43,394 nucleotides of DNA from a virus (lineage: Duplodnaviria > Heunggongvirae > Uroviricota > Caudoviricetes), in the IMG/VR virus record IMGVR_UViG_2519103024_000002, one strand, 5' to 3'. The number at the start of each line of letters is the position of its first letter. Positions within the stretch are counted from its first letter, which is position 1. The translations under genes were made by a program, and so were the position numbers. Of this stretch, positions 2,792-38,918 are shown piece after piece. The notes beneath the pieces are model-generated. The model did no database searches, was not told the DNA's origin, and saw only the letters and a program-made list of their open reading frames with translations.

Positions 2792-5700
2792 TCAACTGAT
2801 ACTGATACCGGCTGTAGATTTCTTCATCACAACAACAAGAAGGTCGCTGATACTGGTCGTTGGCGTCCAGTTATTAGCACCATATGAAGAAACATTGAAA
2901 GTCAGGGTGACATGGCCGTGTCCGGCAGGCATATCAATGACTGATGAAAATACCCTGCTGACATCCGTCGCGGGTTGCTGAAAGATTTCCTGTCCGTTCT
3001 TCAGTACCTGCAGCTTACAGGTTGAATACCAGTATGACTGTTGGTTGTTGCTGTTGAAGTTTTCATGCTTACCCCCACGAAACAGAACGGGGGGGACTAC
3101 TATCTGACGGTCAAAAGCCTGGTCATCGTACACAGTGACCGTTATTGTACCGCTGGCATAACTGCCATTTCTCGGAAAGGCTTTTCCCACCGTTTTGACA
3201 ATATCACCTTCAATCTGGTTAGCTGACAGTTTTCCCAGAATCCGACAGTTCTGATTAATCGTGACGTTGTTGAGCGTCCCGGAGTTCGCGTTCACGTTAC
3301 CGCTGATATCCGCATTTTTCGCAGAAAGTCGACCATCAGGTGTCAGTGAAAACGTTGGGGGATTGCCACCGCTGGTAATGGTGGGAGCCGTCAGATATTT
3401 CAGGAACACTTCGTTCATGAATATCTGATCGCCCTGCCCAACAAACATCGGCTTTGTGTTGCCATTCGCAGGATTAATCATCGCAATCCTGTCCGCCGCC
3501 AGCAGCACCTGACTCTGCATACCGTCAGGAGTATTCTCAACACCGGCACCAATACCCGCGATATAAAGGCGTCCGTCCTGCATCTGCTGCAGCTTCACAG
3601 CCCACATGCTGTTCAGGTTATTATTTGTATCAACCTGAACCTTCTGTATCTGCTGGATCGCTGCACTCTGGTCTTCCAGTTTCTTATTGACGGTCTGCGT
3701 GATTTCATTGCTGACACCCGTAATGGACGTCCTGATTTCAGCCAGGTCAGGCGCAAGCTGACCGTTATCAATCTGCGTCCACAACTCCTGAGCCAGATGG
3801 GTTTTCCCTATCTCTCCTTTGAAAAAATTCAGATAGCCGGATGCATCATCACTCGGCTGGCCAACAGCCTCCACAAATGCCGATTTGCCAACGGTGTTCA
3901 CACTGCGGATGTAAAAATAATAATCATGGCCCGGTTTGATATTGATACTGGCGGCTATCCAGTACAGCGCCGTGCCAAGATAGCGTGCTGTGGTTTCAAC
4001 CTGCCTGATATCCGCAATCCGCTTTTCCGAGAACCAGAACTCAAACTGTACCGTCGGATCATAAACCGCAAGATGCGGCGTGGCGGTTATCTGAAAATAC
4101 CCCGGTGTCAGCTCAATCTGCGACGGCGCTGCCGGTGCGGCAATCCGGAACGATACCGATGCCGGATCGCCCTGCTGCCCCCACGCATTTACCGCCCGGA
4201 CTGTCAGCCTGTAGTTCCCCAGCGCCAGTTGCCTGAAGCGGTATGTGGTTTCCGTCGTCCGGGCCGTGCTGACCAGCCGCTCACTGCCGTCATCCGCTGC
4301 CACGGTCAGGCGAAGCATAAAGCTCACCCCCTTCACCACCTTCGGCGTGTCCCAGCGCGCCAGCACCTGATATTCCCCGCTGTCTGCGGTGACTTCGGCA
4401 GTCAGGTGCTGCACCGCTGGCGGCGTGACACCATTCACCGTGCCGCTCTGGTCGCCGTCAAAGTGCGCCCCGTTATCCACGATGGCCTCTTTTTCCGGTA
4501 CATGCTGCACGGCAGTGATGGCATACGTGCCGTCATCGTTCTCACGGATACTCACACAGCGGAACAGGCGCTGGCGCAACGTTGGCAACTTCAGCCCCCA
4601 CACGCTGTATTCTGCAACGCCGTCAGGAACACGGCTCACTTTTACCTTCACGCCGTCGGTGACGGACTGGACCTCCACGCTGACCGGATTCCCCTGTCCG
4701 TCAGCCAGGCTTATCAGCGTGGTGCCGGAGGATGGCAGCGTGATTTCACGGTCGAGCGTCAGTGTCCGCGTCTGGTTGTTCGCCGCCAGCACGCGCCCGC
4801 CGATGCTGATCCCCGCATAGTCATCATCACAGATTTCAATGACATCGCCCGGTACATGGCGAAGCCCTTCTGCACCCACGCTGAAGTCCACGGTCTGCGT
4901 TTCCAGCAGCTCCGTTTAANCAGCCACAGCCCGGNGCGGTGTCGCCTCGCCCCCGGCTCGGTACANNNNNNNNNNNNNNNNNNNNNNNNNNNNNNNNNNN
5001 NNNNNNNNNNNNNNNNNNNNNNNNNNNNNNNNNNNNNNNNNNNNNNNNNNNNNNNNNNNNNNNNNNNNNNNNNNNNNNNNNNNNNNNNNNNNNNNNNNNN
5101 NNNNNNNNNNNNNNNNNNNNNNNNNNNNNNNNNNNNNNNNNNNNNNNNNNNNNNNNNNNNNNNNNNNNNNNNNNNNNNNNNNNNNNNNNNNNNNNNNNNN
5201 NNNNNNNNNNNNNNNNNNNNNNNNNNNNNNNNNNNNNNNNNNNNNNNNNNNNNNNNNNNNNNNNNNNNNNNNNNNNNNNNNNNNNNNNNNNNNNNNNNNN
5301 NNNNNNNNNNNNNNNNNNNNNNNNNNNNNNNNNNNNNNNNNNNNNNNNNNNNNNNNNNNNNNNNNNNNNNNNNNNNNNNNNNNNNNNNNNNNNNNNNNNN
5401 NNNNNNNNNNNNNNNNNNNNNNNNNNNNNNNNNNNNNNNNNNNNNNNNNNNNNNNNNNNNNNNNNNNNNNNNNNNNNNNNNNNNNNNNNNNNNNNNNNNN
5501 NNNNNNNNNNNNNNNNNNNNNNNNNNNNNNNNNNNNNNNNNNNNNNNNNNNNNNNNNNNNNNNNNNNNNNNNNNNNNNNNNNNNNNNNNNNNNNNNNNNN
5601 NNNNNNNNNNNNNNNNNNNNNNNNNNNNNNNNNNNNNNNNNNNNNNNNNNNNNNNNNNNNNNNNNNNNNNNNNNNNNNNNNNNNNNNNNNNNNNNNNNNN

Positions 5701-7224
5701 NNNNNNNNNNNNNNNNNNNNNNNNNNNNNNNNNNNNNNNNNNNNNNNNNNNNNNNNNNNNNNNNNNNNNNNNNNNNNNNNNNNNNNNNNNNNNNNNNNNN
5801 NNNNNNNNNNNNNNNNNNNNNNNNNNNNNNNNNNNNNNNNNNNNNNNNNNNNNNAGCAGCTCCGTTTTAATCAGCCACAGCCCGGCGCGGTGTGCCTGCC
5901 CCCGGCTGGTACAGCCAAAGGCATCCATCTTCGTGACGTTACGACCGTAACGGGCAATGGCCTGCGTGTCCTCCACAAGCTCTGTCGCCGTCTCCCAGCC
6001 GTTATCCGGGTCAATCCAGTTCACCTCAACGGCATTATGGCGGTCTTTCAGGGCGCTGAAGCTGTAGCGGAACGGCGCGCCATCATCCGGCATCACCACA
6101 TTACTGCGGTTATAGGTCCACACCTTATCCGACGGTCGGTCCTGCACGAATGTCAGCGTCTGCCCGTTCCATACCGGCATACAGCGCATCGCCGAGCAAA
6201 AATCACTGAGCACATCCCACGCCTTGCGCTGTGTGGTCAGGTACGCATTACAGGTGATGCGCGGCTCCGTGCCGCCAAAGCCGTCCGGCACTGACTGGTC
6301 GCAATTCTGGCCGATGACATACAGCGCCCATTTATCCACATCTGCCGCACCAAGACGTTTCCCCATGCCGTAGCGCGGATGGGTCAGCATATCCCACAGA
6401 CACCAGGCCATGTTGTTGCTGTATGCTGGCTTAAACGTTCCGTCCCAGATACCGCTGTATTGCCGCGTCTGCGGGTTATAGTTCGACGGCACCTGCAGAA
6501 TGCGCCCGCGAAGATGATAATTACGGCTCACCTGCTGGCTGCCGAACTGCTCCGAGTCCACCTGTACGCCGACCAGTGCCGTGTTCGGGTAGCACTGTTT
6601 CACATCGATGATTTCGGTGTATGACGACCAGAGCGTTTTGTTCTGCAACTGGTCTGTGGTGCTGTCCGGCGTCATCCTGCGCATCCGGATATTAAACGGG
6701 CGCGGCGGCAGGTTATCCACCACCACCGAGGCCAGATACTGCGACGTGGTTTTGCCCTTAATGGTGATGTCTTTTTCCGTCACCCAGCCACCGTTACGTT
6801 GAATCTGAACCAGCAGGCGGACTTCCGATGGATTCCTGTCCCCCTTTGAGGTGGTTTCCACCAGTGCCTGCACGCCGAAAGTAAAACGCAGACGGTCAAT
6901 GTTTGCCGACGTGATGGTCCGGGTGATCGGCGTGTCATATTTCACTTCTGTACCGAGCACCGTCTCGGAGCCGGAGGATTCAAATCCCTCCGGCGGAGTC
7001 TGCTCCTGCTCACCGGCCCGGAACACCACCGTGACGCCGAATATATTGGTATTCCCCTCACTGTCCAGCACCGGCGTACTGTTCAGCAGCACGCTTTTTA
7101 ATCCATCCACCGGACCTTCAACCGGCCCTTCGCTGATGGCGTCTATCACGCTCAGCATCTGGGATGATTTCAGGTTGTCCTTCGCTTCGCGCGGGGTATG
7201 CCCCTTACTGCTGCCTTTACCCAT
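2792..7224 (-). CDS. J: host specificity / central tail fibre protein J, interrupted by an artefactual N-run (4966-5854) with duplicated flanks
   Basis: N-terminus [22 protein letters not shown]... and the join ...[42 protein letters not shown] read continuously when 4905-4965 is overlapped with 5855-5913; matches lambda gpJ. Confidence 0.9.
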
Positions 7225-8857: not shown

Positions 8858-9391
8858 NNNNNNNNNNNNNNNNNNNNNNNNNNNNNNNNNNNNNNNNNNN
8901 NNNNNNNNNNNNNNNNNNNNNNNNNNNNNNNNNNNNNNNNNNNNNNNNNNNNNNNNNNNNNNNNNNNNNNNNNNNNNNNNNNNNNNNNNNNNNNNNNNNN
9001 NNNNNNNNNNNNNNNNNNNNNNNNNNNNNNNNNNNNNNNNNNNNNNNNNNNNNNNNNNNNNNNNNNNNNNNNNNNNNNNNNNNNNNNNNNNNNNNNNNNN
9101 NNNNNNNNNNNNNNNNNNNNNNNNNNNNNNNNNNNNNNNNNNNNNNNNNNNNNNNNNNNNNNNNNNNNNNNNNNNNNNNNNNNNNNNNNNNNNNNNNNNN
9201 NNNNNNNNNNNNNNNNNNNNNNNNNNNNNNNNNNNNNNNNNNNNNNNNNNNNNNNNNNNNNNNNNNNNNNNNNNNNNNNNNNNNNNNNNNNNNNNNNNNN
9301 NNNNNNNNNNNNNNNNNNNNNNNNNNNNNNNNNNNNNNNNNNNNNNNNNNNNNNNNNNNNNNNNNNNNNNNNNNNNNNNNNNNNNNNNNNN

Positions 9392-17904: not shown

Positions 17905-18754
17905 NNNNNNNNNNNNNNNNNNNNNNNNNNNNNNNNNNNNNNNNNNNNNNNNNNNNNNNNNNNNNNNNNNNNNNNNNNNNNNNNNNNNNNNNNNNNNNNN
18001 NNNNNNNNNNNNNNNNNNNNNNNNNNNNNNNNNNNNNNNNNNNNNNNNNNNNNNNNNNNNNNNNNNNNNNNNNNNNNNNNNNNNNNNNNNNNNNNNNNNN
18101 NNNNNNNNNNNNNNNNNNNNNNNNNNNNNNNNNNNNNNNNNNNNNNNNNNNNNNNNNNNNNNNNNNNNNNNNNNNNNNNNNNNNNNNNNNNNNNNNNNNN
18201 NNNNNNNNNNNNNNNNNNNNNNNNNNNNNNNNNNNNNNNNNNNNNNNNNNNNNNNNNNNNNNNNNNNNNNNNNNNNNNNNNNNNNNNNNNNNNNNNNNNN
18301 NNNNNNNNNNNNNNNNNNNNNNNNNNNNNNNNNNNNNNNNNNNNNNNNNNNNNNNNNNNNNNNNNNNNNNNNNNNNNNNNNNNNNNNNNNNNNNNNNNNN
18401 NNNNNNNNNNNNNNNNNNNNNNNNNNNNNNNNNNNNNNNNNNNNNNNNNNNNNNNNNNNNNNNNNNNNNNNNNNNNNNNNNNNNNNNNNNNNNNNNNNNN
18501 NNNNNNNNNNNNNNNNNNNNNNNNNNNNNNNNNNNNNNNNNNNNNNNNNNNNNNNNNNNNNNNNNNNNNNNNNNNNNNNNNNNNNNNNNNNNNNNNNNNN
18601 NNNNNNNNNNNNNNNNNNNNNNNNNNNNNNNNNNNNNNNNNNNNNNNNNNNNNNNNNNNNNNNNNNNNNNNNNNNNNNNNNNNNNNNNNNNNNNNNNNNN
18701 NNNNNNNNNNNNNNNNNNNNNNNNNNNNNNNNNNNNNNNNNNNNNNNNNNNNNN

Positions 18755-20336: not shown

Positions 20337-20699
20337 AACCTCACTNNNNNNNNNNNNNNNNNNNNNNNNNNNNNNNNNNNNNNNNNNNNNNNNNNNNNNN
20401 NNNNNNNNNNNNNNNNNNNNNNNNNNNNNNNNNNNNNNNNNNNNNNNNNNNNNNNNNNNNNNNNNNNNNNNNNNNNNNNNNNNNNNNNNNNNNNNNNNNN
20501 NNNNNNNNNNNNNNNNNNNNNNNNNNNNNNNNNNNNNNNNNNNNNNNNNNNNNNNNNNNNNNNNNNNNNNNNNNNNNNNNNNNNNNNNNNNNNNNNNNNN
20601 NNNNNNNNNNNNNNNNNNNNNNNNNNNNNNNNNNNNNNNNNNNNNNNNNNNNNNNNNNNNNNNNNNNNNNNNNNNNNNNNNNNNNNNNNNNNNNNNNNN

Positions 20700-23717: not shown

Positions 23718-24619
23718 NNNNNNNNNNNNNNNNNNNNNNNNNNNNNNNNNNNNNNNNNNNNNNNNNNNNNNNNNNNNNNNNNNNNNNNNNNNNNNNNNNN
23801 NNNNNNNNNNNNNNNNNNNNNNNNNNNNNNNNNNNNNNNNNNNNNNNNNNNNNNNNNNNNNNNNNNNNNNNNNNNNNNNNNNNNNNNNNNNNNNNNNNNN
23901 NNNNNNNNNNNNNNNNNNNNNNNNNNNNNNNNNNNNNNNNNNNNNNNNNNNNNNNNNNNNNNNNNNNNNNNNNNNNNNNNNNNNNNNNNNNNNNNNNNNN
24001 NNNNNNNNNNNNNNNNNNNNNNNNNNNNNNNNNNNNNNNNNNNNNNNNNNNNNNNNNNNNNNNNNNNNNNNNNNNNNNNNNNNNNNNNNNNNNNNNNNNN
24101 NNNNNNNNNNNNNNNNNNNNNNNNNNNNNNNNNNNNNNNNNNNNNNNNNNNNNNNNNNNNNNNNNNNNNNNNNNNNNNNNNNNNNNNNNNNNNNNNNNNN
24201 NNNNNNNNNNNNNNNNNNNNNNNNNNNNNNNNNNNNNNNNNNNNNNNNNNNNNNNNNNNNNNNNNNNNNNNNNNNNNNNNNNNNNNNNNNNNNNNNNNNN
24301 NNNNNNNNNNNNNNNNNNNNNNNNNNNNNNNNNNNNNNNNNNNNNNNNNNNNNNNNNNNNNNNNNNNNNNNNNNNNNNNNNNNNNNNNNNNNNNNNNNNN
24401 NNNNNNNNNNNNNNNNNNNNNNNNNNNNNNNNNNNNNNNNNNNNNNNNNNNNNNNNNNNNNNNNNNNNNNNNNNNNNNNNNNNNNNNNNNNNNNNNNNNN
24501 NNNNNNNNNNNNNNNNNNNNNNNNNNNNNNNNNNNNNNNNNNNNNNNNNNNNNNNNNNNNNNNNNNNNNNNNNNNNNNNNNNNNNNNNNNNNNNNNNNNN
24601 NNNNNNNNNNNNNNNNNNN

Positions 24620-30202: not shown

Positions 30203-30726
30203 GCAGCCCTCCTGACGCCCTGCCCGATCGCCATCAATGCCGCTTTGGATACGGTAGTAAACATCCGTCGAGGACTGATGAACGGTCGCCAAATCAGCAG
30301 CATGGAGCCTTTGCTGTTTCCCTTCTTCTCCAGCCCTGTCGATGGTTCGATAAAATTAATCCGTCCATCAGTGATAATACGAACTTCGTCAACACTCTCC
30401 AGAGCCTTGCTGAACCATCCGACAGACATATCCTCTGGCACAAGCATCACTACCGTCTGTCGCTGTTGTATACACTGCTCAGCGGCTTTTTCCACCCACG
30501 GCCTGATATTGCTGTACGGTGGGTTATTCCAGATTGCACCGTGGCTTACCCACTCAGAATTGAGCGCGTCGTCGTCCTCAGTTAGCCAGTGAGCGCACAG
30601 AGCATTTTTGTCGCTCGCTGCCGAATCCAGCCAGAATCCAAACTCAATATCCAGTGCATCAAAAAGCCAAAGCGGCGTTTGCCAGCAGTCCTTGTCGTGT
30701 GCTGGCGTATTTGATTTGATAGTCAT
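30199..30726 (-). CDS. phage orphan DNA N6-adenine methyltransferase
   Basis: [73 protein letters not shown]... NPPY catalytic motif IV; no adjacent restriction enzyme gene; start overlaps ninB stop. Confidence 0.8.
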
Positions 30727-31163
30727 GCAGCCCGATCTCCCCATCGCGCTTTCCATTCGAGAGCCAGTCGCGCTTCGTCTGACCACTTAACGCCACGCTC
30801 TGTACCGAATGCCTGTATAAGCTCTAATAGCTCCGCAAATTCGCTTACACGCATCCTGCTGGTTGACTGGCCTATTACCACAAAGCCATTCCCGGCAAGG
30901 TTAGGAACAACATCCTGCTGCTTTAATGCTGCGGTAAACACACACTTCCAGCTTTCTGCATCCAGCCAGCGACCATGCCATTCAACCTGACGAGAGACGT
31001 CACCTAAGCAGGCCCATAGCTTCCTGTTTTGGTCTAAGCTGCGGTTGCGTTCCTGAATGGTTACTACGATTGGTTTGGTTGGGTCTGGAAGGATTTGCTG
31101 TACTGCGTGAATAGCGTTTTGCTGATGTGCCGGAGATCGAATTTCAAAGGTTAGTTTTTTCAT
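30723..31163 (-). CDS. ninB: NinB recombination protein
   Basis: MKKLTFEIRSPAHQQNAIHAVQQILPDPTKPIVVTIQERNRSLDQNRKLWACLGDVSRQVEWHGRWLDAESWK... = lambda NinB. Confidence 0.9.
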   Translation of the reverse strand: MKKLTFEIRSPAHQQNAIHAVQQILPDPTKPIVVTIQERNRSLDQNRKLWACLGDVSRQVEWHGRWLDAESWKCVFTAALKQQDVVPNLAGNGFVVIGQSTSRMRVSEFAELLELIQAFGTERGVKWSDEARLALEWKARWGDRAA

Positions 31164-31236
31164 GACTTCCCTCTCCCCCAAATAAAAAGGCCTGCGATTA
31201 CCTGCAGGCCTGTTATTAGCTCAGTGATGTAGATGG

Positions 31237-31527
31237 TCATCTTTTAACTCCATATACCGCCAATATCCGTTTCATCGTGGCACTCTGGCGACACTCCTTA
31301 AAAATCAGGTTCGTGCTCATCTTTCCTTCCCGTTCTTCCTTGGTAGCAAACCGGTAATACACCGTTCGCCAGACCTTACCTTCGATAACCAGAAGACCTG
31401 CCCGTGCCATTTTAGCCGCGGCCTGATTTATGCTGGTTACTGTTGCGCCTGTTAGCGCGGCAACGTCCGGCGCACAGAAGCTATTATGCGTCCCCAGGTA
31501 ATGAATAATTGCCTCTTTGCCCGTCAT
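31237..31527 (-). CDS. ren: Ren
   Basis: 96 aa MTGKEAIIHYLGTHNSFCAPDVAALTGATVTSINQAAAKMARAGLLVIEGKVWRTVYYRFATKEEREGK... = lambda Ren. Confidence 0.9.
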   Translation of the reverse strand: MTGKEAIIHYLGTHNSFCAPDVAALTGATVTSINQAAAKMARAGLLVIEGKVWRTVYYRFATKEEREGKMSTNLIFKECRQSATMKRILAVYGVKR

Positions 31528-32225
31528 ACACTTGCTCCTTTCAGTCCTAACTTAGCTTTAATTTCTGCGATCTTCGCCAGCGCCTGAACACGATTTAGAG
31601 GTCTGCCGCCCATGACAGGAAGTTGTTTTACTGGTTCAGGTATCGTCTCACCACGGTTAATTCGCGCTGTCATACAGGTCAGTTCATCGGCAGCCTTGCG
31701 TCGTAATTCCGCGTCAGTCAGCGCATTGGCCCGCATGTTCTGGTACAGGTTGGTAACCAGCCAGTAGTGCGCGTTCGATTTCCACGGATAAGACTCTGCA
31801 TCCGGATACAGGCCTCGCTTCCGGCAATACTCGTAAACCATATCAACCAGCTCGCTGACGTTTGGCAGTCCGGCGATAACGGATGCTTCTTCCCGGCACC
31901 ATGCAACAAACTGCCCGGGTGATGGCAGAAATGGTCGATTCTGCCGACGGGCTACGCGCATTCCTGCGTTAACCTGTTCCATTGTGGTGATCCCGTTTTC
32001 CCGGAAAGCCAGAACCCACTGGCGGCGGATTTCGTTCAGTTCGTTCTGGTCACGGTTAGCCAGACTCGCCGGGAAAGTTGCCAGTAACTGGCTGAACACA
32101 CCGTTGATGATCTGCGCTACCTGCTGTACCTGCGGCTTTTCGTCGTACTGTTCCGGCATGTTGTTGGCGATCCGACGCATCTGCTCACGGTCAAAATTAA
32201 CCATCTGTGCGGCGATGTTTTTCAT
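31524..32225 (-). CDS. P: replication protein P (DnaB helicase loader)
   Basis: 233 aa MKNIAAQMVNFDREQMRRIANNMPEQYDEKPQVQQVAQIINGVFSQLLATFPASLANRDQNELNEIRRQW... = lambda P. Confidence 0.95.
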   Translation of the reverse strand: MKNIAAQMVNFDREQMRRIANNMPEQYDEKPQVQQVAQIINGVFSQLLATFPASLANRDQNELNEIRRQWVLAFRENGITTMEQVNAGMRVARRQNRPFLPSPGQFVAWCREEASVIAGLPNVSELVDMVYEYCRKRGLYPDAESYPWKSNAHYWLVTNLYQNMRANALTDAELRRKAADELTCMTARINRGETIPEPVKQLPVMGGRPLNRVQALAKIAEIKAKLGLKGASV

Positions 32226-33121
32226 AAATCCACCCCGTAAATCCAGTCAGTGTTTGTCAGGTCGAGTTTTGGTTTGCAGGCTGTCACACCTGCCTGTTGC
32301 TTGTTACGGTTGATTTCGAGCTGGGTCCACTTGTCGCGGAGTTTGGCCGGGCTCAGCACGTTACCGGACCAGAAGTTGTCCTGGCATGCCCAGCGGAACA
32401 GTACACACATGTCGCGATGGTTACGTCCGTCACGTTCACGCATCAGGCGGATATCGTTAGCCCACCCTGCAAAATTCGGTTTTCTGGCTGATGGCGCGAT
32501 GGTCTTCACCATGTCAAACATCCATTCTGCGGCGGTCAGGTCTTCTGCTGTCCCCCACTTGCTGCCGCTCTGAATTGCAGCATCCGGTTTCACCACAGAA
32601 AGGTCGTTTTCTGGCTGGTCAGAGGATTCGCCAGAATTCTCTGACGAATAATCTTTTCTTTTTTCTTTTGTAATAGTGTCTTTTGTGTCCCCCTGTTTTG
32701 AGGGATAGCAATCCCCCAATTTGAGGGATGTTTTATCCCTCGTTTTAGGGGATTTTCCCTCGTTTTGAGGGATACACCATTCTGAGATGTTTTTATTTGG
32801 TCCAAACATGCCGCCTTGCTGCTTGATAATATTCATTCTGACGAGTTCTAACTTGGCTTCATTGCACCGTTTGACGGGTAACTTTGTAATCTCGCTAAGT
32901 TGAGAATCGGTGATTCTGTCCATTGGTTTATTCCATCCATAGGTTTTACGCAGAATGGCAAGCAGCACTTTAAACTGTCGCTTGGTCAGATCTGCGCCTG
33001 AATAAGCCTCAAGCAGCATATTTGATAGTCTGGCGTAACCATCATCGAGATCTGCCACATTACGCTCCTGTTTGGCAAAGTTACCTCTGCAGAAGTTGAG
33101 TATTTTTGCTGTATTTGTCAT
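32222..33121 (-). CDS. O: replication initiator O
   Basis: 299 aa MTNTAKILNFCRGNFAKQERNVADLDDGYARLSNMLLEAYSGADLTKRQFKVLLAILRKTYGWNKPMDRITDSQ... = lambda O; contains the ori iterons. Confidence 0.95.
   Translation of the reverse strand: MTNTAKILNFCRGNFAKQERNVADLDDGYARLSNMLLEAYSGADLTKRQFKVLLAILRKTYGWNKPMDRITDSQLSEITKLPVKRCNEAKLELVRMNIIKQQGGMFGPNKNISEWCIPQNEGKSPKTRDKTSLKLGDCYPSKQGDTKDTITKEKRKDYSSENSGESSDQPENDLSVVKPDAAIQSGSKWGTAEDLTAAEWMFDMVKTIAPSARKPNFAGWANDIRLMRERDGRNHRDMCVLFRWACQDNFWSGNVLSPAKLRDKWTQLEINRNKQQAGVTACKPKLDLTNTDWIYGVDL
32645..32773 (-). repeat. ori-lambda: four O-binding iterons (32685-32773) plus adjacent AT-rich unwinding region (32645-32684), inside O
   Basis: Four tandem ~19-23 bp repeats visible on the plus strand: gtgtccccctgttttgagggata / gcaatcccccaatttgagggatgt / tttatccctcgttttaggggat / tttccctcgttttgagggat, next to ctgacgaataatcttttcttttttcttttgtaatag. 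Confidence 0.9.
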
Positions 33122-33175
33122 AATGACTCCTGTGGATTGATCCAGTAATGACCTCAGAATTCCATCTGGATTTGT

Positions 33176-33451
33176 TCAGAACGCTCGGTTGCCGCCGGGC
33201 GTTTTTTTATTGGTGAGTCCATCAAGCGCATACTTAAAAGCCCTGCTAATCGGACTGATGTCTGATGCCATTCCGAAAGCACACAAGACCGAAGCAATAA
33301 ATCTCCAGTCCGTTCTGCTTATCTTCGATTCATGACAGCCAATCATCTTTGCCAGACCGCGCTGGGTAATAGCTGACAGATTGATAAGTAAATCTGTTTC
33401 TGCGCGATCAACGTCACGCTGTGATAGTTTGCTGTAACTTGTTCTTTCCAT
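33176..33451 (-). CDS. cII: CII-like transcriptional activator (not lambda-type sequence)
   Basis: 91 aa; between cro/nutR and O; ...QRGLAKMIGCHESKISRTDWRF... HTH-like and C-terminal ...LTNKKTPGG resembling the CII tail. Confidence 0.7.
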   Translation of the reverse strand: MERTSYSKLSQRDVDRAETDLLINLSAITQRGLAKMIGCHESKISRTDWRFIASVLCAFGMASDISPISRAFKYALDGLTNKKTPGGNRAF

Positions 33452-33487
33452 TTCTTAAGATTTCCAATAGTGAATAGTTAGTTGAAA

Positions 33488-33510
33488 GGTATGCGTGGAA
33501 ACGCATATGG
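33488..33510 (-). terminator. possible tR1-like hairpin between nutR and cII
   Basis: ATGCGT-GGAA-ACGCAT stem-loop; on the minus strand followed by ACCTTTTCAAC; position equivalent to lambda tR1. Confidence 0.35.
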
Positions 33511-33536
33511 CCTTAGTTGGTCAGATATCTTGGAAC

Positions 33537-33582
33537 TCGCTTTTCAGCGACGTAGGACGAATGTCCGTTGTTACAAAGAGCG
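33537..33582 (-). promoter_or_regulatory. nutR (boxA CGCTCTTTG plus boxB stem-loop UCGCUGAAAAGCGA)
   Basis: Minus strand just after the cro stop: ...CGCTCTTTGTAACAACGGACATTCGTCCTACGTCGCTGAAAAGCGAG; same architecture and shared core CTACGT-GCTGAAAAGC with the site upstream of N. Confidence 0.7.
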
Positions 33583-33592
33583 GATCCGCTTA

Positions 33593-33808
33593 TTAAGCGG
33601 CTTTGTGTTCCGGCGGGAACACGTCATCAAGACTGACTTTTGCGCCTAACTTGTTTAGGCACGCAACAAGAGCACGGCATGTTTTAAGGTCTGGGAAGCG
33701 ACGACCAGATTCCCAATGTCCGATAGCTCCCTGTGTGCATCCAACTGCCTTAGCAAGTGTTGTTTGAGAGATATTCAGTGACTCTCGATATTTTCGTAGG
33801 TTGCTCAT
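33593..33808 (-). CDS. cro: Cro-like repressor (XRE-family HTH, 71 aa)
   Basis: From ATG at 33808: MSNLRKYRESLNISQTTLAKAVGCTQGAIGHWESGRRFPDLKTCRALVACLNKLGAKVSLDDVFPPEHKAA; divergent from cI; ORF-track start 33979 runs into the operator region. Confidence 0.85.
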   Translation of the reverse strand: MSNLRKYRESLNISQTTLAKAVGCTQGAIGHWESGRRFPDLKTCRALVACLNKLGAKVSLDDVFPPEHKAA

Positions 33809-33919
33809 ATGCCCTCCATAGTAAACACGAATAAAAAAATACAATATGTACTTTGCGAATACAAGTAAAAATACACATTGTGCATGGATGGTTCCAGTAC
33901 AGAGCGTAATAATAAGGAC
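33809..33919. promoter_or_regulatory. OR region with divergent promoters (PR toward cro, PRM toward cI)
   Basis: 111-bp AT-rich divergent intergenic region; candidate PR on minus strand TTGTAT-17 nt-TATTTT then GGAGGG SD before cro; 11-mer ATATGTACTTT (33844-33854) is the reverse complement of an 11-mer in the PL spacer. Confidence 0.65.
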
Positions 33920-34579
33920 ATGAAAATGAAATGGTATGAACTGGCTAGATCCAGAATGAAAGAGCTCGGCATAACTCAAGAGAAGTTAGCCGAAGAGCTA
34001 GGTATGACGCAGGGTGGGATTGGACACTGGTTGCGCGGATCTCGTCATCCATCTCTTAGTGATATTGGTGTGGTGTTTAAATACCTTGGTATTGATAACA
34101 TATCATTCAACCACGACGGGACATTTTCACCTGTTGGCGAATACTCATCGGCCCCAGTTAAAAAACAATATGAGTACCCTGTTTTTTCTCATGTTCAGGC
34201 TGGGATGTTCTCTCCAGAACTCAGAACCTTTACCAAAGGCGATGCGGAGAGATTGGTAAGCACAACCAAAAAAGCCAGTGACTCTGCATTCTGGCTTGAG
34301 GTTGAAGGTAACTCAATGACCGCACCAACAGGTTCCAAACCCAGCTTTCCTGACGGGATGTTAATTCTGGTTGACCCTGAGCAAGCTGTTGAGCCCGGCG
34401 ATTTCTGCATAGCCAGACTTGGTGGTGATGAATTTACCTTCAAGAAACTGATCAGGGATAGCGGTCAGGTGTTTCTACAGCCACTAAACCCACAATACCC
34501 AATGATCCCATGCAATGAGAGTTGTTCCGTTGTGGGGAAAGTTATCGCCAGCCAATGGCCTGAAGAGACGTTTGGGTGA
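33920..34579 (+). CDS. cI: CI prophage repressor: non-lambda N-terminal HTH domain fused to lambda-type C-terminal S24 autocleavage/dimerisation domain
   Basis: [58 protein letters not shown]... then from ...[71 protein letters not shown]...QWPEETFG, which matches the lambda CI C-terminal domain as remembered. Confidence 0.9.
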
Positions 34580-34618
34580 TGAAACCACTTTTATCTACAA
34601 TTTACAGGGCGGTAAACA

Positions 34619-35176
34619 TTGGCAAAAATAGATGATTATCAGCCAAGCCAAGTAGAAGTTGATAAAGTACTTTATTGTAAAAAAATAGTTAACTTTTCTG
34701 GCGTTAAATGGAAACAGAAACCAAGTCGCTCTGATATGTGGCTACAAGCCCATATCATCCCCTTGGATGAGGATTGTATACCTATACAAGGGCTAAAGTT
34801 TGAACTGAAATGGAAACCAGATCAGGATTCAGAACCTGATGACCCGATTTCTTACCCTAAAATAAATATTATTGCTTTCTATCATAACAAGAGGGTTTTC
34901 GCGGTAGATACCTATCACTTTGACAAACACACGAATAGTTACAAGGTCGATCATCCGAAGTACCAAGATATCATTTACGGTGCTCACTACCATGTATACT
35001 ATGAAGAAGCTGGATACTATAGTGATAGAATAGCGTTTCCAATCGAAGATGACATAAACCCAGATGACCTGGTAGGGTATTGGAATTACTTCTGTAAACA
35101 TCTGAACATAACTTACTCTGGGAGAATACCTTTACCGCTTGAAGATGAGTCGGGGCAAATGGGGTTTGGAATATGA
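34619..35176 (+). CDS. hypothetical protein A of an unassigned two-gene operon in the rexA position (candidate superinfection-exclusion / anti-phage function)
   Basis: 185 aa ORF starting 39 bp after the cI stop, same strand; track start 34619 is TTG (first in-frame ATG at 34736); AT-rich; His/Tyr/Asp-rich (YHFDKH, HYHVYYEE); no TM segment or motif I can assign. Confidence 0.6.
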   Translation: MAKIDDYQPSQVEVDKVLYCKKIVNFSGVKWKQKPSRSDMWLQAHIIPLDEDCIPIQGLKFELKWKPDQDSEPDDPISYPKINIIAFYHNKRVFAVDTYHFDKHTNSYKVDHPKYQDIIYGAHYHVYYEEAGYYSDRIAFPIEDDINPDDLVGYWNYFCKHLNITYSGRIPLPLEDESGQMGFGI

Positions 35177-35925
35177 TGTGCTCAACAGTGATCTCACAAC
35201 TAGGTTTCGAATGCCATCCAATAGGCAAGACCTTGAGAATTATCAGTCCATTCACTTACTGTGATGATGGAGAGCATGTCGGTGCCTTTATCCGTGAAGT
35301 CAATGGTAGGTATTTAGTTAGTGACAGATGCGATGCCTTAATGAATATGGAGGCAAGAGGGATCTCGCTTACCAAAAAACGACTTGATGAGATACGACAA
35401 TTACTGCTTAAAGAAGGCGCAGAACTCAATGCTCGAGGAGAAATCATTGCTTGGGCAACAGAAAAGGATGTCGGTGCGATTACATCGAACATAATTAGAG
35501 CTGGTATACTCGCATCAACTTTGTCGTTAGACTGGTATCAGCCAGTTCAAGCTGAAAAGTTTGAAAGTATGGTTATTGATTATCTATATCACACAGAGCT
35601 TAGAGACGCACTTTCTCTTCGTGAAAACGTATATGGCTTGAGTGGACATCAAATTACCGTCCCTGTAACAATAAAAACCGACATACCTAAATACGTTTTT
35701 ACATCAAGCGTGAAACACGGAGGAAGCTGGAATAGTGCTTACTCATTGCTTGGGAAACTAATTGATCTTAAAGCTTCAAGTGAGGAGTATAACAACAGAT
35801 TTGTTGTTATAGACAGCGAAGCAATTGGTGATCAAATGCAACAACTCTCCTTACTCTTCCATGAATCAAGCCAAGTTCTACCATTCTCCAAAAGAGAGAC
35901 TTGGGTTAAGAGACTTGCAGCATAA
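35173..35925 (+). CDS. hypothetical protein B of the same operon (rexB position), soluble, no recognised family
   Basis: 250 aa; ATG at 35173 overlaps the stop of protein A (ATGA coupling); followed by a strong intrinsic terminator; AT-rich; no Walker A, nuclease or TM motif seen. Confidence 0.7.
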   Translation: MMCSTVISQLGFECHPIGKTLRIISPFTYCDDGEHVGAFIREVNGRYLVSDRCDALMNMEARGISLTKKRLDEIRQLLLKEGAELNARGEIIAWATEKDVGAITSNIIRAGILASTLSLDWYQPVQAEKFESMVIDYLYHTELRDALSLRENVYGLSGHQITVPVTIKTDIPKYVFTSSVKHGGSWNSAYSLLGKLIDLKASSEEYNNRFVVIDSEAIGDQMQQLSLLFHESSQVLPFSKRETWVKRLAA

Positions 35926-35930
35926 TACAA

Positions 35931-35956
35931 CCCGGCCTCAGCGCCGGGTTTTCTTT
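35931..35956 (+). terminator. intrinsic terminator closing the cI / two-gene operon
   Basis: CCCGGC-CTCAGC-GCCGGG hairpin followed by TTTTCTTT, 6 nt after the protein B stop. Confidence 0.8.
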
Positions 35957-36143
35957 GCCTCACGTTCGCCCACCTAAAAACACATAACCAATTATATTTA
36001 TTGAAAAATAAATAGATGCAACCCACTAAACCACGCAATTCTGATCTCTCCTTACATCGCCGAGGCAATACATCCACGCTAAAAAACAACACTATTAAAT
36101 ACAAAGCGTTATAAAAAACCACGCCAACTTACAACAAATTGTA

Positions 36144-36172
36144 TTGATCTTGTAAAGTACATATCGTACTAT
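36144..36172 (+). promoter_or_regulatory. candidate PL promoter with operator motif in the spacer (OL)
   Basis: TTGATC-17 nt-TACTAT; spacer contains AAAGTACATAT (36154-36164), the same 11-mer (same orientation relative to transcription) as in the PR spacer. Confidence 0.55.
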
Positions 36173-36218
36173 TTAACCGTCAGCAGGACGCTGGAAGCCA
36201 AATGGAACAGACTGGCAG

Positions 36219-36263
36219 GCTCTTTAAACAACGTCGACTCTCGACTACGTGGCTGAAAAGCCA
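36219..36263 (+). promoter_or_regulatory. nutL (boxA GCTCTTTAA plus boxB stem-loop UGGCUGAAAAGCCA)
   Basis: GGCTCTTTAAACAACGTCGACTCTCGACTACGTGGCTGAAAAGCCAG between PL and N; GAAA-type loop on a 5-bp stem; paralleled by the site after cro. Confidence 0.7.
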
Positions 36264-36361
36264 GATCACCCAACCACATAAGCTGTGGGATGCAATGCCG
36301 AAGCAACCGTCTCAGGAGGAGCTTCGAGATTGCATCGCCAAAGTTTATTCGGGAGGAATCC

Positions 36362-36634
36362 ATGTCCAGAAAAACAGAATTTAAAGGCACCGCAGCTTCT
36401 CGCCGTAGAGCTCGTCGCGCAAATCTGCAAAGTCAGGAGGCGATCAGCTCCGACAAGCTACACAGGCCAACCCCTTCACGAGTGGTCTTGCAATGCAAGC
36501 TCAAACCAGCAATGAGAGCAGAAGTGATAACTCTGACAACGTTGACCAGAAAATATGAAGGTTCAACTTGTCTTCCGAACGTAGCTCTTTACGCGGCAGG
36601 CTACCGGAAATCAAAACAACTGACGGCGAGATGA
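36362..36634 (+). CDS. N: N-type transcription antiterminator (arginine-rich RNA-binding motif); not lambda N sequence
   Basis: From ATG at 36362: MSRKTEFKGTAASRRRARRANLQSQEAISSDKLHRPTP...; Arg-rich motif near N-terminus; downstream of PL/nutL; ORF-track start 36290 is upstream. Confidence 0.75.
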   Translation: MSRKTEFKGTAASRRRARRANLQSQEAISSDKLHRPTPSRVVLQCKLKPAMRAEVITLTTLTRKYEGSTCLPNVALYAAGYRKSKQLTAR

Positions 36635-36650
36635 TAAATTCATTTGCTAA

Positions 36651-37232
36651 TTACTTGTTTTTGCCATGCTTATCCTGAGCGATAAGTTCATCCATAAGGC
36701 TGTCTGCCTTCCCGGCAAACCTAATGTAGCACTCATGTCTATAGCTTTCAGGGATAACGAAACGGTCGGTATCAGGATATCCAACAGCAGGAGGCCTTCG
36801 AACGAGGAGTCCTTTTTTGAGCAATGAAATTGATTCATGAGCGCCCTTTTCCGTTTGTAGCTGGTTATTAGCGGCTACAGCGAATGCCAAATACGCTCTT
36901 TCTCCAAGAGTTAACGAATCAAACAAATCTTGCACATATTTTTCTTCTTTAGATTTGCGCTTCTGAGCAGCGAATACCTCAATTCTTTCAGTCACAGCGT
37001 GATAAGCGGAATTAACAACGCCGTTAAGCACATAGCTAACGCAAAACAACAGGATGTAATACATCCAGTAATGAGGAAGGATTTCTGGATTATGCAGGTT
37101 TATCCATTCTTTTACGCTTACCGGCATAACAATAATCAATATGATCAGGATGATTAGCATATGAATCAACTGTTTAAGTGTCATTCCTTGCAGGAAAAAA
37201 TGCATTAGTTCCTGCCACCATGAGTTGTTCAT
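36651..37232 (-). CDS. sieB: superinfection exclusion protein B (SieB-like membrane protein)
   Basis: 193 aa MNNSWWQELMHFFLQGMTLKQLIHMLIILIILIIVMPVSVKEWINLHNPEILPHYWMYYILLFCVSYVLNG... two N-terminal TM helices; opposite strand abutting N, as lambda sieB. Confidence 0.85.
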   Translation of the reverse strand: MNNSWWQELMHFFLQGMTLKQLIHMLIILIILIIVMPVSVKEWINLHNPEILPHYWMYYILLFCVSYVLNGVVNSAYHAVTERIEVFAAQKRKSKEEKYVQDLFDSLTLGERAYLAFAVAANNQLQTEKGAHESISLLKKGLLVRRPPAVGYPDTDRFVIPESYRHECYIRFAGKADSLMDELIAQDKHGKNK

Positions 37233-37375
37233 CGGCGTTTCTCTTTTGCTCTCTGTAGGGGTGAATAGAGTTTATCCGATTTCTCGTTGTAGGGGTACAC
37301 GAGAACCACCGAGCCTGATGTGGTTAAAAGACAGGCACAATCTTTACTACCGCAATCCACTATTTAAGGTGATAT

Positions 37376-37462
37376 ATGGAAGAAGAATTTGAAGAGTTCG
37401 AAGAGCATCCTCAAGATGTGATGGAACAATACCAGGACTATCCGTATGACTACGACTATTGA
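37376..37462 (+). CDS. small acidic ORF (28 aa) upstream of ral
   Basis: ATG at 37376 with AAGGTGA SD; MEEEFEEFEEHPQDVMEQYQDYPYDYDY; below the ORF-track cut-off; overlaps the ral start. Confidence 0.45.
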   Translation: MEEEFEEFEEHPQDVMEQYQDYPYDYDY

Positions 37463-37646
37463 TACAAATCAATGGTGTGGACAATTCAAACGATGCAATG
37501 GATGCAAGCTGCAATCGGAATGCATGGTTAAGCCTGAAGAAATGTTTCCTGTAATGGAAGATGGGAAATATGTCGATAAATGGGCAATACGAACGACGGC
37601 AATGATTGCCAGAGAACTTGGTAAACAGAACAACAAAGCTGCCTGA
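37446..37646 (+). CDS. ral: Ral restriction-alleviation protein
   Basis: 66 aa MTTTIDTNQWCGQFKRCNGCKLQSECMVKPEEMFPVMEDGKYVDKWAIRTTAMIARELGKQNNKAA = lambda Ral. Confidence 0.9.
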   Translation: MTTTIDTNQWCGQFKRCNGCKLQSECMVKPEEMFPVMEDGKYVDKWAIRTTAMIARELGKQNNKAA

Positions 37647-37828
37647 TAGTGGCCTTTATTTTTGGCATAAATAACAGAATAAACACTGCACTGTGTATTC
37701 ATTCCAACGAGTGAATACACGGAGCAATGTCGCTCGTAACTAAACAGGAGCCGACTTGTTCTGATTATTGGAAATCTTCTTTGCCCTCCAGTGTGAGGGC
37801 GATTTTTTATCTATGAGGATATGAATAG

Positions 37829-38197
37829 ATGTCAAACATCAAAAAATACATCATTGATTACGACTGGAAAGCATCAATAGAAATTGAAATTGACCATGAC
37901 GTAATGACAGAGGAAAAACTTCACCAGATTAATAATTTCTGGTCAGACTCTGAATACCGACTCAATAAACACGGCTCTGTATTAAATGCTGTATTAATCA
38001 TGCTGGCGCAACATGCTCTGCTTATAGCAATTTCAAGCGACTTAAATGCATATGGTGTTGTGTGTGAGTTCGACTGGAATGATGGAAATGGTCAGGAAGG
38101 ATGGCCTCCAATGGATGGTAGTGAAGGAATAAGAATTACCGATATCGATACATCAGGAATATTTGATTCAGATGATATGACTATCAAGGCCGCCTGA
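37829..38197 (+). CDS. ea10: Ea10-like early protein
   Basis: 122 aa, between ral and cIII as lambda ea10; name from position and length. Confidence 0.6.
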   Translation: MSNIKKYIIDYDWKASIEIEIDHDVMTEEKLHQINNFWSDSEYRLNKHGSVLNAVLIMLAQHALLIAISSDLNAYGVVCEFDWNDGNGQEGWPPMDGSEGIRITDIDTSGIFDSDDMTIKAA

Positions 38198-38269
38198 GCG
38201 CGGCGTTACCGCATACCAATTACGCTTCACTCGAGGCGTTTTTCGTTATGTATAAATAAGGAGCACACC

Positions 38270-38434
38270 ATGCAATATGCCATTGCAGGGTGGCCTGTTG
38301 CTGGCTGCCCTTCCGAATCTTTACTTGAACGAATCACCCGTAAATTACGTGACGGATGGAAACGCCTTATCGACATACTTAATCAGCCAGGAGTCCCAAA
38401 AAATGGATCAAACAATTATGGCTATCCAGACTAA
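38270..38434 (+). CDS. cIII: CIII (FtsH inhibitor)
   Basis: ATG at 38270 after AAGGAGCACACC; [54 protein letters not shown] = lambda CIII (54 aa); found by manual translation. Confidence 0.9.
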   Translation: MQYAIAGWPVAGCPSESLLERITRKLRDGWKRLIDILNQPGVPKNGSNNYGYPD

Positions 38435-38546
38435 ATTCACTATCGCCACTTTTATTGGCGATGAAAAGATGTTTCGTGAGGCCGTCGACGCTTATAAAAA
38501 ATGGATATTAATACTGAAACTGAGATCAAGCAAAAGCATTCACTAA
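38403..38546 (+). CDS. kil: Kil (host cell-division inhibitor)
   Basis: [47 protein letters not shown] = lambda Kil (47 aa); overlaps cIII 3' end in another frame. Confidence 0.9.
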
Positions 38547-38621
38547 CCCCCTTTCCTGTTTTCCTAATCAGCCTGGCATTTCGCGGGCGATATTTTCACA
38601 GCCATTTTCAGGAGTTCAGCC

Positions 38622-38918
38622 ATGAACGCTTATTACATTCAGGATCGTCTTGAGGCTCAGAGCTGGGCGCGTCACTACCAGCAGATCGCCCGTGAAGAGA
38701 AAGAGGCAGAACTGGCAGACGACATGGAAAAAGGCCTGCCCCAGCACCTGTTTGAATCGCTATGCATCGATCATTTACAACGCCACGGGGCCAGCAAAAA
38801 AGCCATTACCCGTGCGTTTGATGACGATGTTGAGTTTCAGGAGCGCATGGCAGAACACATCCGGTACATAGTTGAAACCATTGCTCACCATCAGGCTGAT
38901 ATTGATTCAGAGGTATAA
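38622..38918 (+). CDS. gam: Gam (RecBCD inhibitor), short 98-aa form
   Basis: [60 protein letters not shown]... = lambda GamS; upstream [11 protein letters not shown]... extension is in a different frame here. Confidence 0.9.

Follow-up and report, generated by a model that had tools for sequence, protein, structure and literature searches.

The virus record IMGVR_UViG_2519103024_000002 (Caudoviricetes), a DNA stretch of 43,394 nucleotides that was analysed as a whole and is referred to here as the window, carries a lambdoid immunity region that runs in the reverse of the lambda map orientation. At the centre of this region lies the cI repressor gene (33920/33926..34579, + strand), which encodes 219 amino acids (aa) when read from the ATG at 33920, contains a second in-frame ATG at 33926 and ends with the stop codon at 34577-34579. 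Its product is composed of an N-terminal part, i.e., a DNA-binding domain of the HTH_3 type with a variable linker (NTD; residues 1-83, 33920..34168), which is of the type found in phage VT2-Sakai, and of a lambda-type C-terminal part (CTD; residues 84-219, 34169..34579). The explanation that fits these features best, and that we regard as highly probable, is that the gene encodes a VT2-Sakai-type CI repressor with an inherited, recurrent module junction, combined with cassette exchange downstream of this junction.

Domain assignments follow the same division. Residues 11-58 match Pfam HTH_3 (E 1.9e-10) and residues 87-209 match Pfam Peptidase_S24 (E 1.1e-28); the top PDB match of the full-length protein is the lambda repressor (3BDN, E 2.6e-96), and the CTD matches 8GMU and 1F39. 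In the alignment with lambda CI, the linker site VQA94-G95MF is identical to the lambda cleavage site VQA111-G112MF, and S132 and K175 align with the lambda catalytic residues S149 and K192 within an ungapped stretch (Y84-G219) that, according to BLASTP against NP_040628, is identical at 135 of 136 positions, the sole change being W to L. It appears from these matches that CI is a self-cleaving phage repressor of the lambda-CI/LexA class.

The relation to lambda changes abruptly within the gene. Residues 1-83 share 22.9% aa identity with lambda CI (23-25% across comparisons) and 39.8% nucleotide (nt) identity. Blastn homology to lambda within cI is confined to 34169-34580 (lambda 37637-37226, 93.4%), and no nucleotide homology to lambda was detected by blastn between 33218 and 34168. 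In a maximum chi-square scan of the codon alignment, the breakpoint was placed between 34168 and 34169 (chi2 = 226), with 150 differences from lambda cI among the 249 nt upstream and 27 among the 408 nt downstream. This homology boundary (34168..34169) lies between codons Q83 and Y84, in the interdomain linker, 10 codons upstream of the Ala-Gly cleavage site. In the CTD, nonsynonymous divergence (dN) from lambda is 0.003 and synonymous divergence (dS) is 0.37 (dN/dS 0.008), whereas upstream of the boundary dS is saturated and not computable. A sequence-only reading of this DNA had described the C-terminal ~140 aa as lambda CI, had placed a joint inside cI near the domain linker at about 34170-34200, and had proposed alignment as the means of locating the breakpoint. 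Both statements are borne out, the predicted position being essentially exact, and the alignment reveals a sharp step in identity instead of uniform divergence across the repressor. The same reading regarded the NTD as unrelated to that of lambda, which is incorrect: identity is weak (23% aa), but both domains belong to HTH_3 and are remote homologues. The lambda repressor NTD is the best natural match among solved structures for this domain, albeit a weak one (E 4.5e-4 to 3e-3). As judged by eye on the alignment, 9 of 20 residues in helix 2-turn-helix 3 are identical to lambda and the equivalents of lambda Q33 and Q44 are kept; other residues stand at the positions of S45, A49, and N52, and the lambda N-terminal arm is missing.

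The remaining components of the switch are of a non-lambda type, as had been anticipated for cro, the operators, N, and the nut sites. The cro gene (33593..33808, - strand, divergent from cI) encodes an all-helical HTH_3 Cro of 71 aa that is 100% identical (71/71) to VT2-Sakai Cro and 69% identical to ST64T Cro, and BLASTP yielded no match to lambda Cro. Cro is paralogous to the cI NTD (35% identity, E 9e-13), an arrangement that is found in P22 and 434, unlike in lambda. Six 17-bp operators were located from the VT2-Sakai annotation, four of which are exact copies, while OL2 and OL3 carry one mismatch each. Three lie between cI and cro: OR1 (AAATACAATATGTACTT, 33837..33853) overlaps the predicted pR promoter (TTGTAT-17-TATTTT, - strand); OR2 (AAATACACATTGTGCAT, 33869..33885) has its centre ~43 bp before the cI ATG, which mirrors the placement of lambda OR2 relative to pRM; and OR3 (CAGTACAGAGCGTAATA, 33895..33911) overlaps the predicted -10 element of pRM. 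The other three lie upstream of N, namely OL3 (AAATACAAAGCGTTATA, 36097..36113) and OL2 (TACAACAAATTGTATTG, 36130..36146), both mapped from the VT2-Sakai annotation, and OL1 (AAGTACATATCGTACTA, 36155..36171), which overlaps the predicted pL. A symmetrised position weight matrix of the six gave the consensus AAGTACAAATTGTACTT, which has an invariant AC...GT core and is unlike that of lambda. The six operators are the six top matches to this matrix among 43,378 positions in the window; when each was left out in turn, it still ranked among the top 7 of 43,378, behind at most five other operators and one other position. The operators are thus real as a sequence family, and their layout relative to the promoters, with OR1 on pR and OR3 on the -10 element of pRM, is that of lambda and is suggestive of lambda-like function. 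The promoters pR, pRM, and pL were all missed by a generic sigma-70 scan (five sites found vs. 6.7 expected from shuffled sequences), and the promoter positions are based on the VT2-Sakai annotation and on direct reading of the sequence.

The antitermination components are also of another type. The nutR site (33537..33582, - strand) comprises boxA (CGCTCTTTG) and the boxB hairpin UCGCU-GAAA-AGCGA, whereas nutL (36225..36263, + strand) has the boxB hairpin UGGCU-GAAA-AGCCA at 36250-36263. In both sites, boxB is preceded by a CUACGU spacer. An Rfam scan of 32800-37400 (E <= 0.1) matched no family to the nut sites or to any other RNA. The N antiterminator (36362..36634, + strand, 90 aa; Pfam N_peptide, E 1.5e-32) is 98.9% identical (89/90) to VT2-Sakai N, 42% identical to HK97 N, and 33% identical over 63 aa to lambda N.

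All of these elements lead to a known immunity type. The CI protein is identical to VT2-Sakai CI at 218 of 219 aa, including the whole of the NTD (100%), and nucleotide identity to VT2-Sakai (Sp5; AP000422/NC_000902) is 98.6% over 33596-34168. The segment comprising cro, OR, and the NTD part of cI matches 64 phage records and is 98.3-98.6% identical in VT2-Sakai, the Stx1-converting phage, Stx2-II, Nil2, 2851, 1717, YYZ-2008, and many O157 Stx2a phages. Phages ev207, ev017, PhiR57_1, and PhiR63_2 match the interval 33500-36700 at 100% identity, and across the right half of the window they match at 99.4-100%. Among 5,426 complete E. coli genomes, at least 776 contain 80% or more of the cro-cI module; copies with 100% identity occur in Nissle 1917 (prophage 3), the type strain ATCC 11775, NU14, and others. 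The VT2-Sakai record (1999-2000) describes its cI product as 'similar to bacteriophage lambda CI' and annotates three OR and three OL operators, pR, pRM, pL, nutR, and nutL, with the operators and promoters labelled 'putative'. According to the account in PMC10742460, high homology to lambda CI in the CTD and low homology in the NTD had already been described by Fattah et al. (2000), and among Stx-phage repressors, VT2-Sakai-type CI falls into clade I, the clade nearest to lambda CI (PMC8951638). The mosaic repressor and its immunity type were therefore already known, and the suggestion of a new immunity specificity cannot be upheld. With respect to group membership, the window has neither a lambda-type NTD nor lambda operators nor lambda Cro, which separates it from the lambda immunity group (lambda, HK97, ev099), whereas its near-identical CI and Cro and its six conserved operators place it with the VT2-Sakai immunity group, or clade I. 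HK97 was considered as a second case of a foreign NTD on a lambda CTD and was rejected because its CI is a lambda-immunity CI; the lambda NTD is likewise carried by ev099 and mEp332 CI.

By analogy with lambda, the HTH_3 NTD would bind the six 17-bp operators, i.e., three OR between cI and cro and three OL upstream of N, and would thereby shut off pR and pL and autoregulate pRM, positively from OR2 and negatively from OR3. The CTD, given its 99% identity to that of lambda, would provide dimerisation and higher-order cooperativity between dimers. Under stimulation by RecA*, the S132/K175 dyad would cut the protein's own A94-G95 bond, leading to SOS induction with lambda-like kinetics.

The different operators, the changed recognition residues, and the absence of the N-terminal arm argue for a specificity distinct from that of lambda. 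The literature on this point is ambiguous. PMC10742460 credits Fattah et al. (2000) with a report of cross-immunity with lambda, a test of which had also been proposed in the sequence-only reading, and describes gel shifts in which lambda CI bound all six VT2-Sa operators (KDapp 3.7-6.4 uM). Thus, the specificity might not be truly distinct, because similar recognition helices, with Q33, Q44, and nearly half of the helix-turn-helix conserved, or mixed oligomers formed through the CTDs, which make heterodimers plausible, would give partial cross-immunity. Nonetheless, in the same assay this binding was 15-25 times weaker than that of lambda OR1 and OL1 (0.21-0.35 uM), and it did not exceed the affinity of lambda CI for the operators of Stx2 I, the second Stx phage in that assay (3.7-7.7 uM; PMC10742460), so the binding of VT2-Sa operators may be non-specific. 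The operator consensus is unlike that of lambda, as are the residues at the positions of S45, A49, and N52, and there is no N-terminal arm; moreover, the 'phage repressor' of Nissle 1917 that lowers lambda plating maps to cII and not to cI (see below). Taken together, partial cross-talk of this kind seems rather unlikely, although it is the alternative that retains the most weight. A related idea, which is tentative and less probable than its opposite, is that heteroimmune repressors with a nearly identical CTD (of the lambda type, the VT2-Sakai type, and a third NTD class) could form mixed dimers or tetramers in polylysogens, and that the CTD, owing to its extreme conservation, and the terminator downstream could serve as the homology arms of a cassette that moves defence-like cargo. 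If so, mixed oligomers would couple the switches of different prophages through shared induction thresholds, dominant-negative titration, and cross-cooperativity, and might explain the reported 'cross-immunity' of lambda and VT2-Sa, while the cargo shuttled between immunity groups would include rexAB, an NYN-domain gene, and the PDC-M24-like pair described below.

The VT2-Sakai-type repressor is not the only one in which this boundary is found. A search with the CTD alone gave 293 cluster representatives (E <= 1e-40), and among the 113 listed for which the N-terminal part was classified, 29 have a lambda-like, 39 a Sakai-like, and 45 a third (HTH_19-type) NTD; these classes were assigned against references, as single-linkage clustering at 40% identity had merged the lambda and Sakai classes. 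In the members of the CTD family that were inspected, conservation begins at (Y/F)xYP(V/L)FS. The clearest example of exchange is provided by phages E212, which has Sakai-type immunity, and ev099, which has lambda immunity: both contain a common block (L008 2501-4072 = L007 2501-4074, 97.7%) that consists of the CTD, an NYN-domain cargo gene, and the terminator, starts exactly at the cI junction, ends past the conserved terminator, and is flanked by unrelated NTD/cro/OR and OL/N segments. Over 408 sites, the CTDs of E212 and ev099 differ by 8 nt, whereas those of E212 and VT2-Sakai differ by 20; the CTD of phi458, which has a Sakai NTD, is 22-23 nt from lambda and HK97 and 33 from the window. 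As these distances cross immunity types, the CTD does not follow the type of the NTD. In the window, the right-hand conserved flank is the strong intrinsic terminator that closes the cI operon (35929..35950, + strand). This terminator is part of a 122-bp island (35929-36050) with 90% identity to lambda 35826-35708, a segment right after rexB. It is reasonable to assume that the conserved CTD and this terminator flank a variable cargo slot, occupied by rexAB in lambda, and that homologous recombination would move the CTD, cargo, and terminator as one cassette from one lambdoid phage to another of different immunity, an exchange that is partly shown and partly inferred. The boundary is a recurrent module boundary. 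The data fit a long association of three NTD classes with the CTD family, together with ongoing block exchange among co-infecting phages, and either the NTD or the CTD (replaced or homogenised) may have been the piece that was originally exchanged.

The question of whether the junction was made in this phage can be addressed by comparing it with its surroundings. Homology to VT2-Sakai runs unbroken across the junction (33114-34577, 96.6%) and resumes at 35928-36634. Synonymous divergence from lambda is 0.37 in the CTD and 0.08, 0.16, 0, and 0.03 in O, P, ren, and ral, respectively. Since the CTD is far above the chassis genes in this respect and VT2-Sakai is colinear across the junction, the CTD and the junction came ready-made with the Sakai-type immunity module. 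These comparisons show that the junction was inherited with the cII'-cro-OR-cI module and, past the cargo, the OL-N module, and was not made here; the boundaries relevant to the assembly of this phage are instead those inside cII (33217) and just beyond sieB (37253). The proposal that the joint had formed on a lambda chassis is contradicted by the same contrast in dS and by the same colinearity. A recent crossover within cI, with lambda or a very close relative as one partner and a heteroimmune phage as the other, which would have created a new hybrid repressor and immunity in this phage in the manner of imm434 or imm21, could account for the sharp boundary in the linker and for the lambda-like DNA (97-98%) on both sides of the immunity region. 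However, it conflicts with the divergence of the CTD and with the uninterrupted VT2-Sakai homology, and the identical junction is present with a near-identical protein in the same phages as listed above, from VT2-Sakai, the Stx1 and Stx2-II phages, and Nil2 to YYZ-2008 (64 records), and at least 80% of the module in 776 complete E. coli genomes. The dS contrast and this distribution already refute the proposal of a recent crossover, which is very improbable.

Least probable of all, to the point of being negligible, is descent without recombination from one ancestral repressor whose NTD diverged rapidly under diversifying selection while the CTD was held by purifying selection: the very low dN/dS of the CTD, the shared Pfam family, and the weak match of the NTD to the lambda NTD structure are compatible with it, but it is already refuted by the step in divergence at synonymous sites, which lie beyond protein-level selection, and is further opposed by CTD distances that are incongruent with NTD type and by the 1.57-kb block (97.7%) that heteroimmune phages have in common from the junction onward. 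Differential protein constraint cannot explain the step because synonymous divergence also jumps, and does so within one codon. Comparison of the sequences thus indicates that the boundary at 34168/34169 is a genuine recombination junction, both old and recurrent.

Several points weigh against the interpretation of CI as a VT2-Sakai-type repressor with an inherited junction and an exchangeable cassette. The centre-to-centre spacing of the operators (32 and 26 bp in OR, 25 and 33 bp in OL) is unlike the 20-24 bp of lambda, and the pairwise arrangement of cooperativity may differ accordingly from that in lambda. DNA binding, cooperativity, and RecA-dependent cleavage are properties that we infer from the near-identity of the CTD to lambda and from a VT2-Sakai annotation labelled 'putative'. 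If the cross-immunity reportedly found by Fattah et al. holds, the specificity would not be cleanly distinct. Finally, support for the cassette idea comes from one clean pair (E212/ev099), the matrix of CTD distances, and one scar (in Stx1_121427, see below).

The start of cI deserves mention. The true start is likely the ATG at 33926, which gives 217 aa (MKWYELA...), as the N-termini of SPN9CC (MNWYD...) and Midgardsormr38 (MKWYD...) repressors and the VT2-Sakai annotation agree with it and as AAGGA lies 7 nt upstream. The RefSeq/PGAP start, ATG 33884 (231 aa), lies inside OR2/OR3 and the predicted pRM; the start is set wrongly by PGAP.

The slot between the cI stop codon and the terminator (34619..35925) is filled by two open reading frames (ORFs) that overlap by 4 nt and are presumably co-transcribed with cI in lysogens. 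ORF 1 (34619-35176, + strand, 185 aa) belongs to PHROG 2017 and has weak matches to PDC-M24A and DUF6978, and ORF 2 (35173-35925, + strand, 250 aa) carries DUF1828. With respect to the PADLOC system PDC-M24, the match of the B component to ORF 2 is full-length (E 4.7e-10), whereas that of the A component to ORF 1 is weak and partial (E 4.8e-4, residues 104-163). The two genes may be regarded as a candidate defence pair of the prophage that is as yet uncharacterised. Neither protein gave a meaningful match in sequence searches of the PDB and NCBIfam, literature searches for DUF1828 and PDC-M24 yielded nothing on function, and no link between ECOR13 and the cargo pair was found in Vassallo et al. 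(2022). The Stx1a phage Stx1_121427 has the pair (98.5-99.9% identity) downstream of an unrelated cI, and in front of the pair 30 nt are left over from the 3' end of a lambda-type cI. Elsewhere, the slot is occupied by rexAB (lambda), H0093/H0092 (VT2-Sakai), gp49/gp48 (HK97), or an NYN-domain gene (ev099 and E212); it holds a gene for a ~345-aa protein in mEp332 and a gene of ~348 aa in phi458, and these two loci are not homologous there.

Within this part of the window, blastn homology to lambda is found at four places, i.e., 30723-33217, 34169-34580, 35929-36050, and 37253-38734. The first (97.2%) comprises ninB, ren, P, and O together with ~60 nt at the 3' end of cII, and the last (98.4%) extends from orf28/ral leftward. 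The lambda-like character that had been assigned to O, P, ren, and ral is evident at 95-99% nt identity. The same assignment fails for sieB: the SieB-family gene (36651..37232, - strand; Pfam SieB; PHROG 1301, 'superinfection exclusion; inhibits SieB') lies between N and 37253, outside the lambda-homologous DNA, and its product has 18% identity to lambda SieB (E 0.61), so that only the Pfam SieB family is held in common. At the megablast level, only 41% of the window is homologous to lambda; this share takes in tail genes, the Rz/bor area, ninB-O, and ral-ea22 and leaves out the head genes, Q, and most of the lysis genes. The window also contains masked runs of N in the tail/head region (4966-5854, 8858-9391, 17905-18754, 20346-20699, and 23718-24619, with single N at 4920, 4935, and 20721), and the immunity region is unaffected by them.

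The immunity substitution has its right-hand limit within cII (33176..33451, - strand; Pfam Phage_CII), at 33217. The 3' poly-A run of this gene (within 33140-33260) is A7 in the window and A6 in Nissle 1917, lambda, and ev099. The extra A shifts the frame of the last ~15 codons, replacing ...KKRPAATERSEQIQMEF and its stop codon with ...KKTPGGNRAF and a stop codon. The tail of lambda CII is a degradation signal for FtsH, and the frameshift could be genuine and stabilise the protein, or it could be a sequencing error in the homopolymer. With regard to Nissle 1917, a 'phage repressor (pr)' of prophage 3 was reported to reduce the plating of lambda and Stx phages more than 200-fold (Bury et al. 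2018, PMC5987069). The primers used in that work for cloning and quantitative PCR map to cII (window 33126-33497) and not to cI, which identifies this 'phage repressor', as judged from primer positions, as cII. A deletion of the repressor is seen in Klebsiella phage phiKp_30 (LC768498; L009 683-1233), in which cro, OR, and ~67 nt from the 5' end of cI are fused directly to OL (window 33575-33986 followed by 36131-36227). The cI gene and the cargo between OR and OL are thereby lost, which would be expected of a virulent derivative, and the phage was isolated from sewage.

As a discovery, the finding carries little weight: the mosaic repressor, the operators, and the kinship with lambda CI were documented in 1999-2000, and few lambdoid immunity types are commoner in E. 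coli than this module, which is present in O157 Stx phages, Nissle 1917, and the type strain of the species. Its value lies in its being a clean textbook case of a module junction located exactly at a protein domain boundary, and in two corrections of annotation, i.e., that of the cI start set by PGAP and that of the Nissle 'phage repressor'. The sole forward-looking points are the possible mixed oligomers of heteroimmune repressors and the PDC-M24-like pair in the cI operon.

Among known systems, VT2-Sakai resembles the window in CI, Cro, N, the operators, and the position of the junction relative to lambda CI. It differs in the contents of the rex slot (H0093/H0092 vs. the PDC-M24-like pair) and in its replication genes, which are HK022-like, whereas those of the window are lambda O/P and are accompanied by sieB. 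Lambda (3BDN, 1F39, 1LMB) shares with the window a two-domain CI, divergent cI and cro, and tripartite OR and OL, as well as the CTD with its cleavage site, Ser/Lys dyad, and all oligomerisation surfaces. In contrast to lambda, the NTD of the window is 14 residues shorter and has no N-terminal arm, the consensus and spacing of the operators differ, Cro belongs to a different fold class (HTH_3, not lambda Cro), and N and the nut sites are of another type. Repressors with the same NTD family (48-57% identity) are found in SPN9CC, ST64T/phage L (C2), and the Erwinia phage Midgardsormr38, and the Cro of P22-like Salmonella phages is likewise an HTH_3 protein of this kind (43-69%). In SPN9CC, CI aligns colinearly with that of the window through the junction (NTD 48%, linker 50%, lambda-type CTD 80%), whereas ST64T/L C2 and Midgardsormr38 have a closer NTD (56-57%) and a different, P22-type CTD (40-44%). 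The general pattern, in which a foreign immunity module is inserted into a lambda-like early region with boundaries in or next to regulatory genes, is that of lambda imm434 and imm21 and of the modular theory of Botstein and Susskind. The imm434 and imm21 hybrids are products of laboratory crosses, and their boundaries lie outside the linker of the repressor; unlike them, the module in the window is natural and is split into cII'-cro-OR-NTD and OL-N parts by a shared block of CTD, cargo, and terminator.

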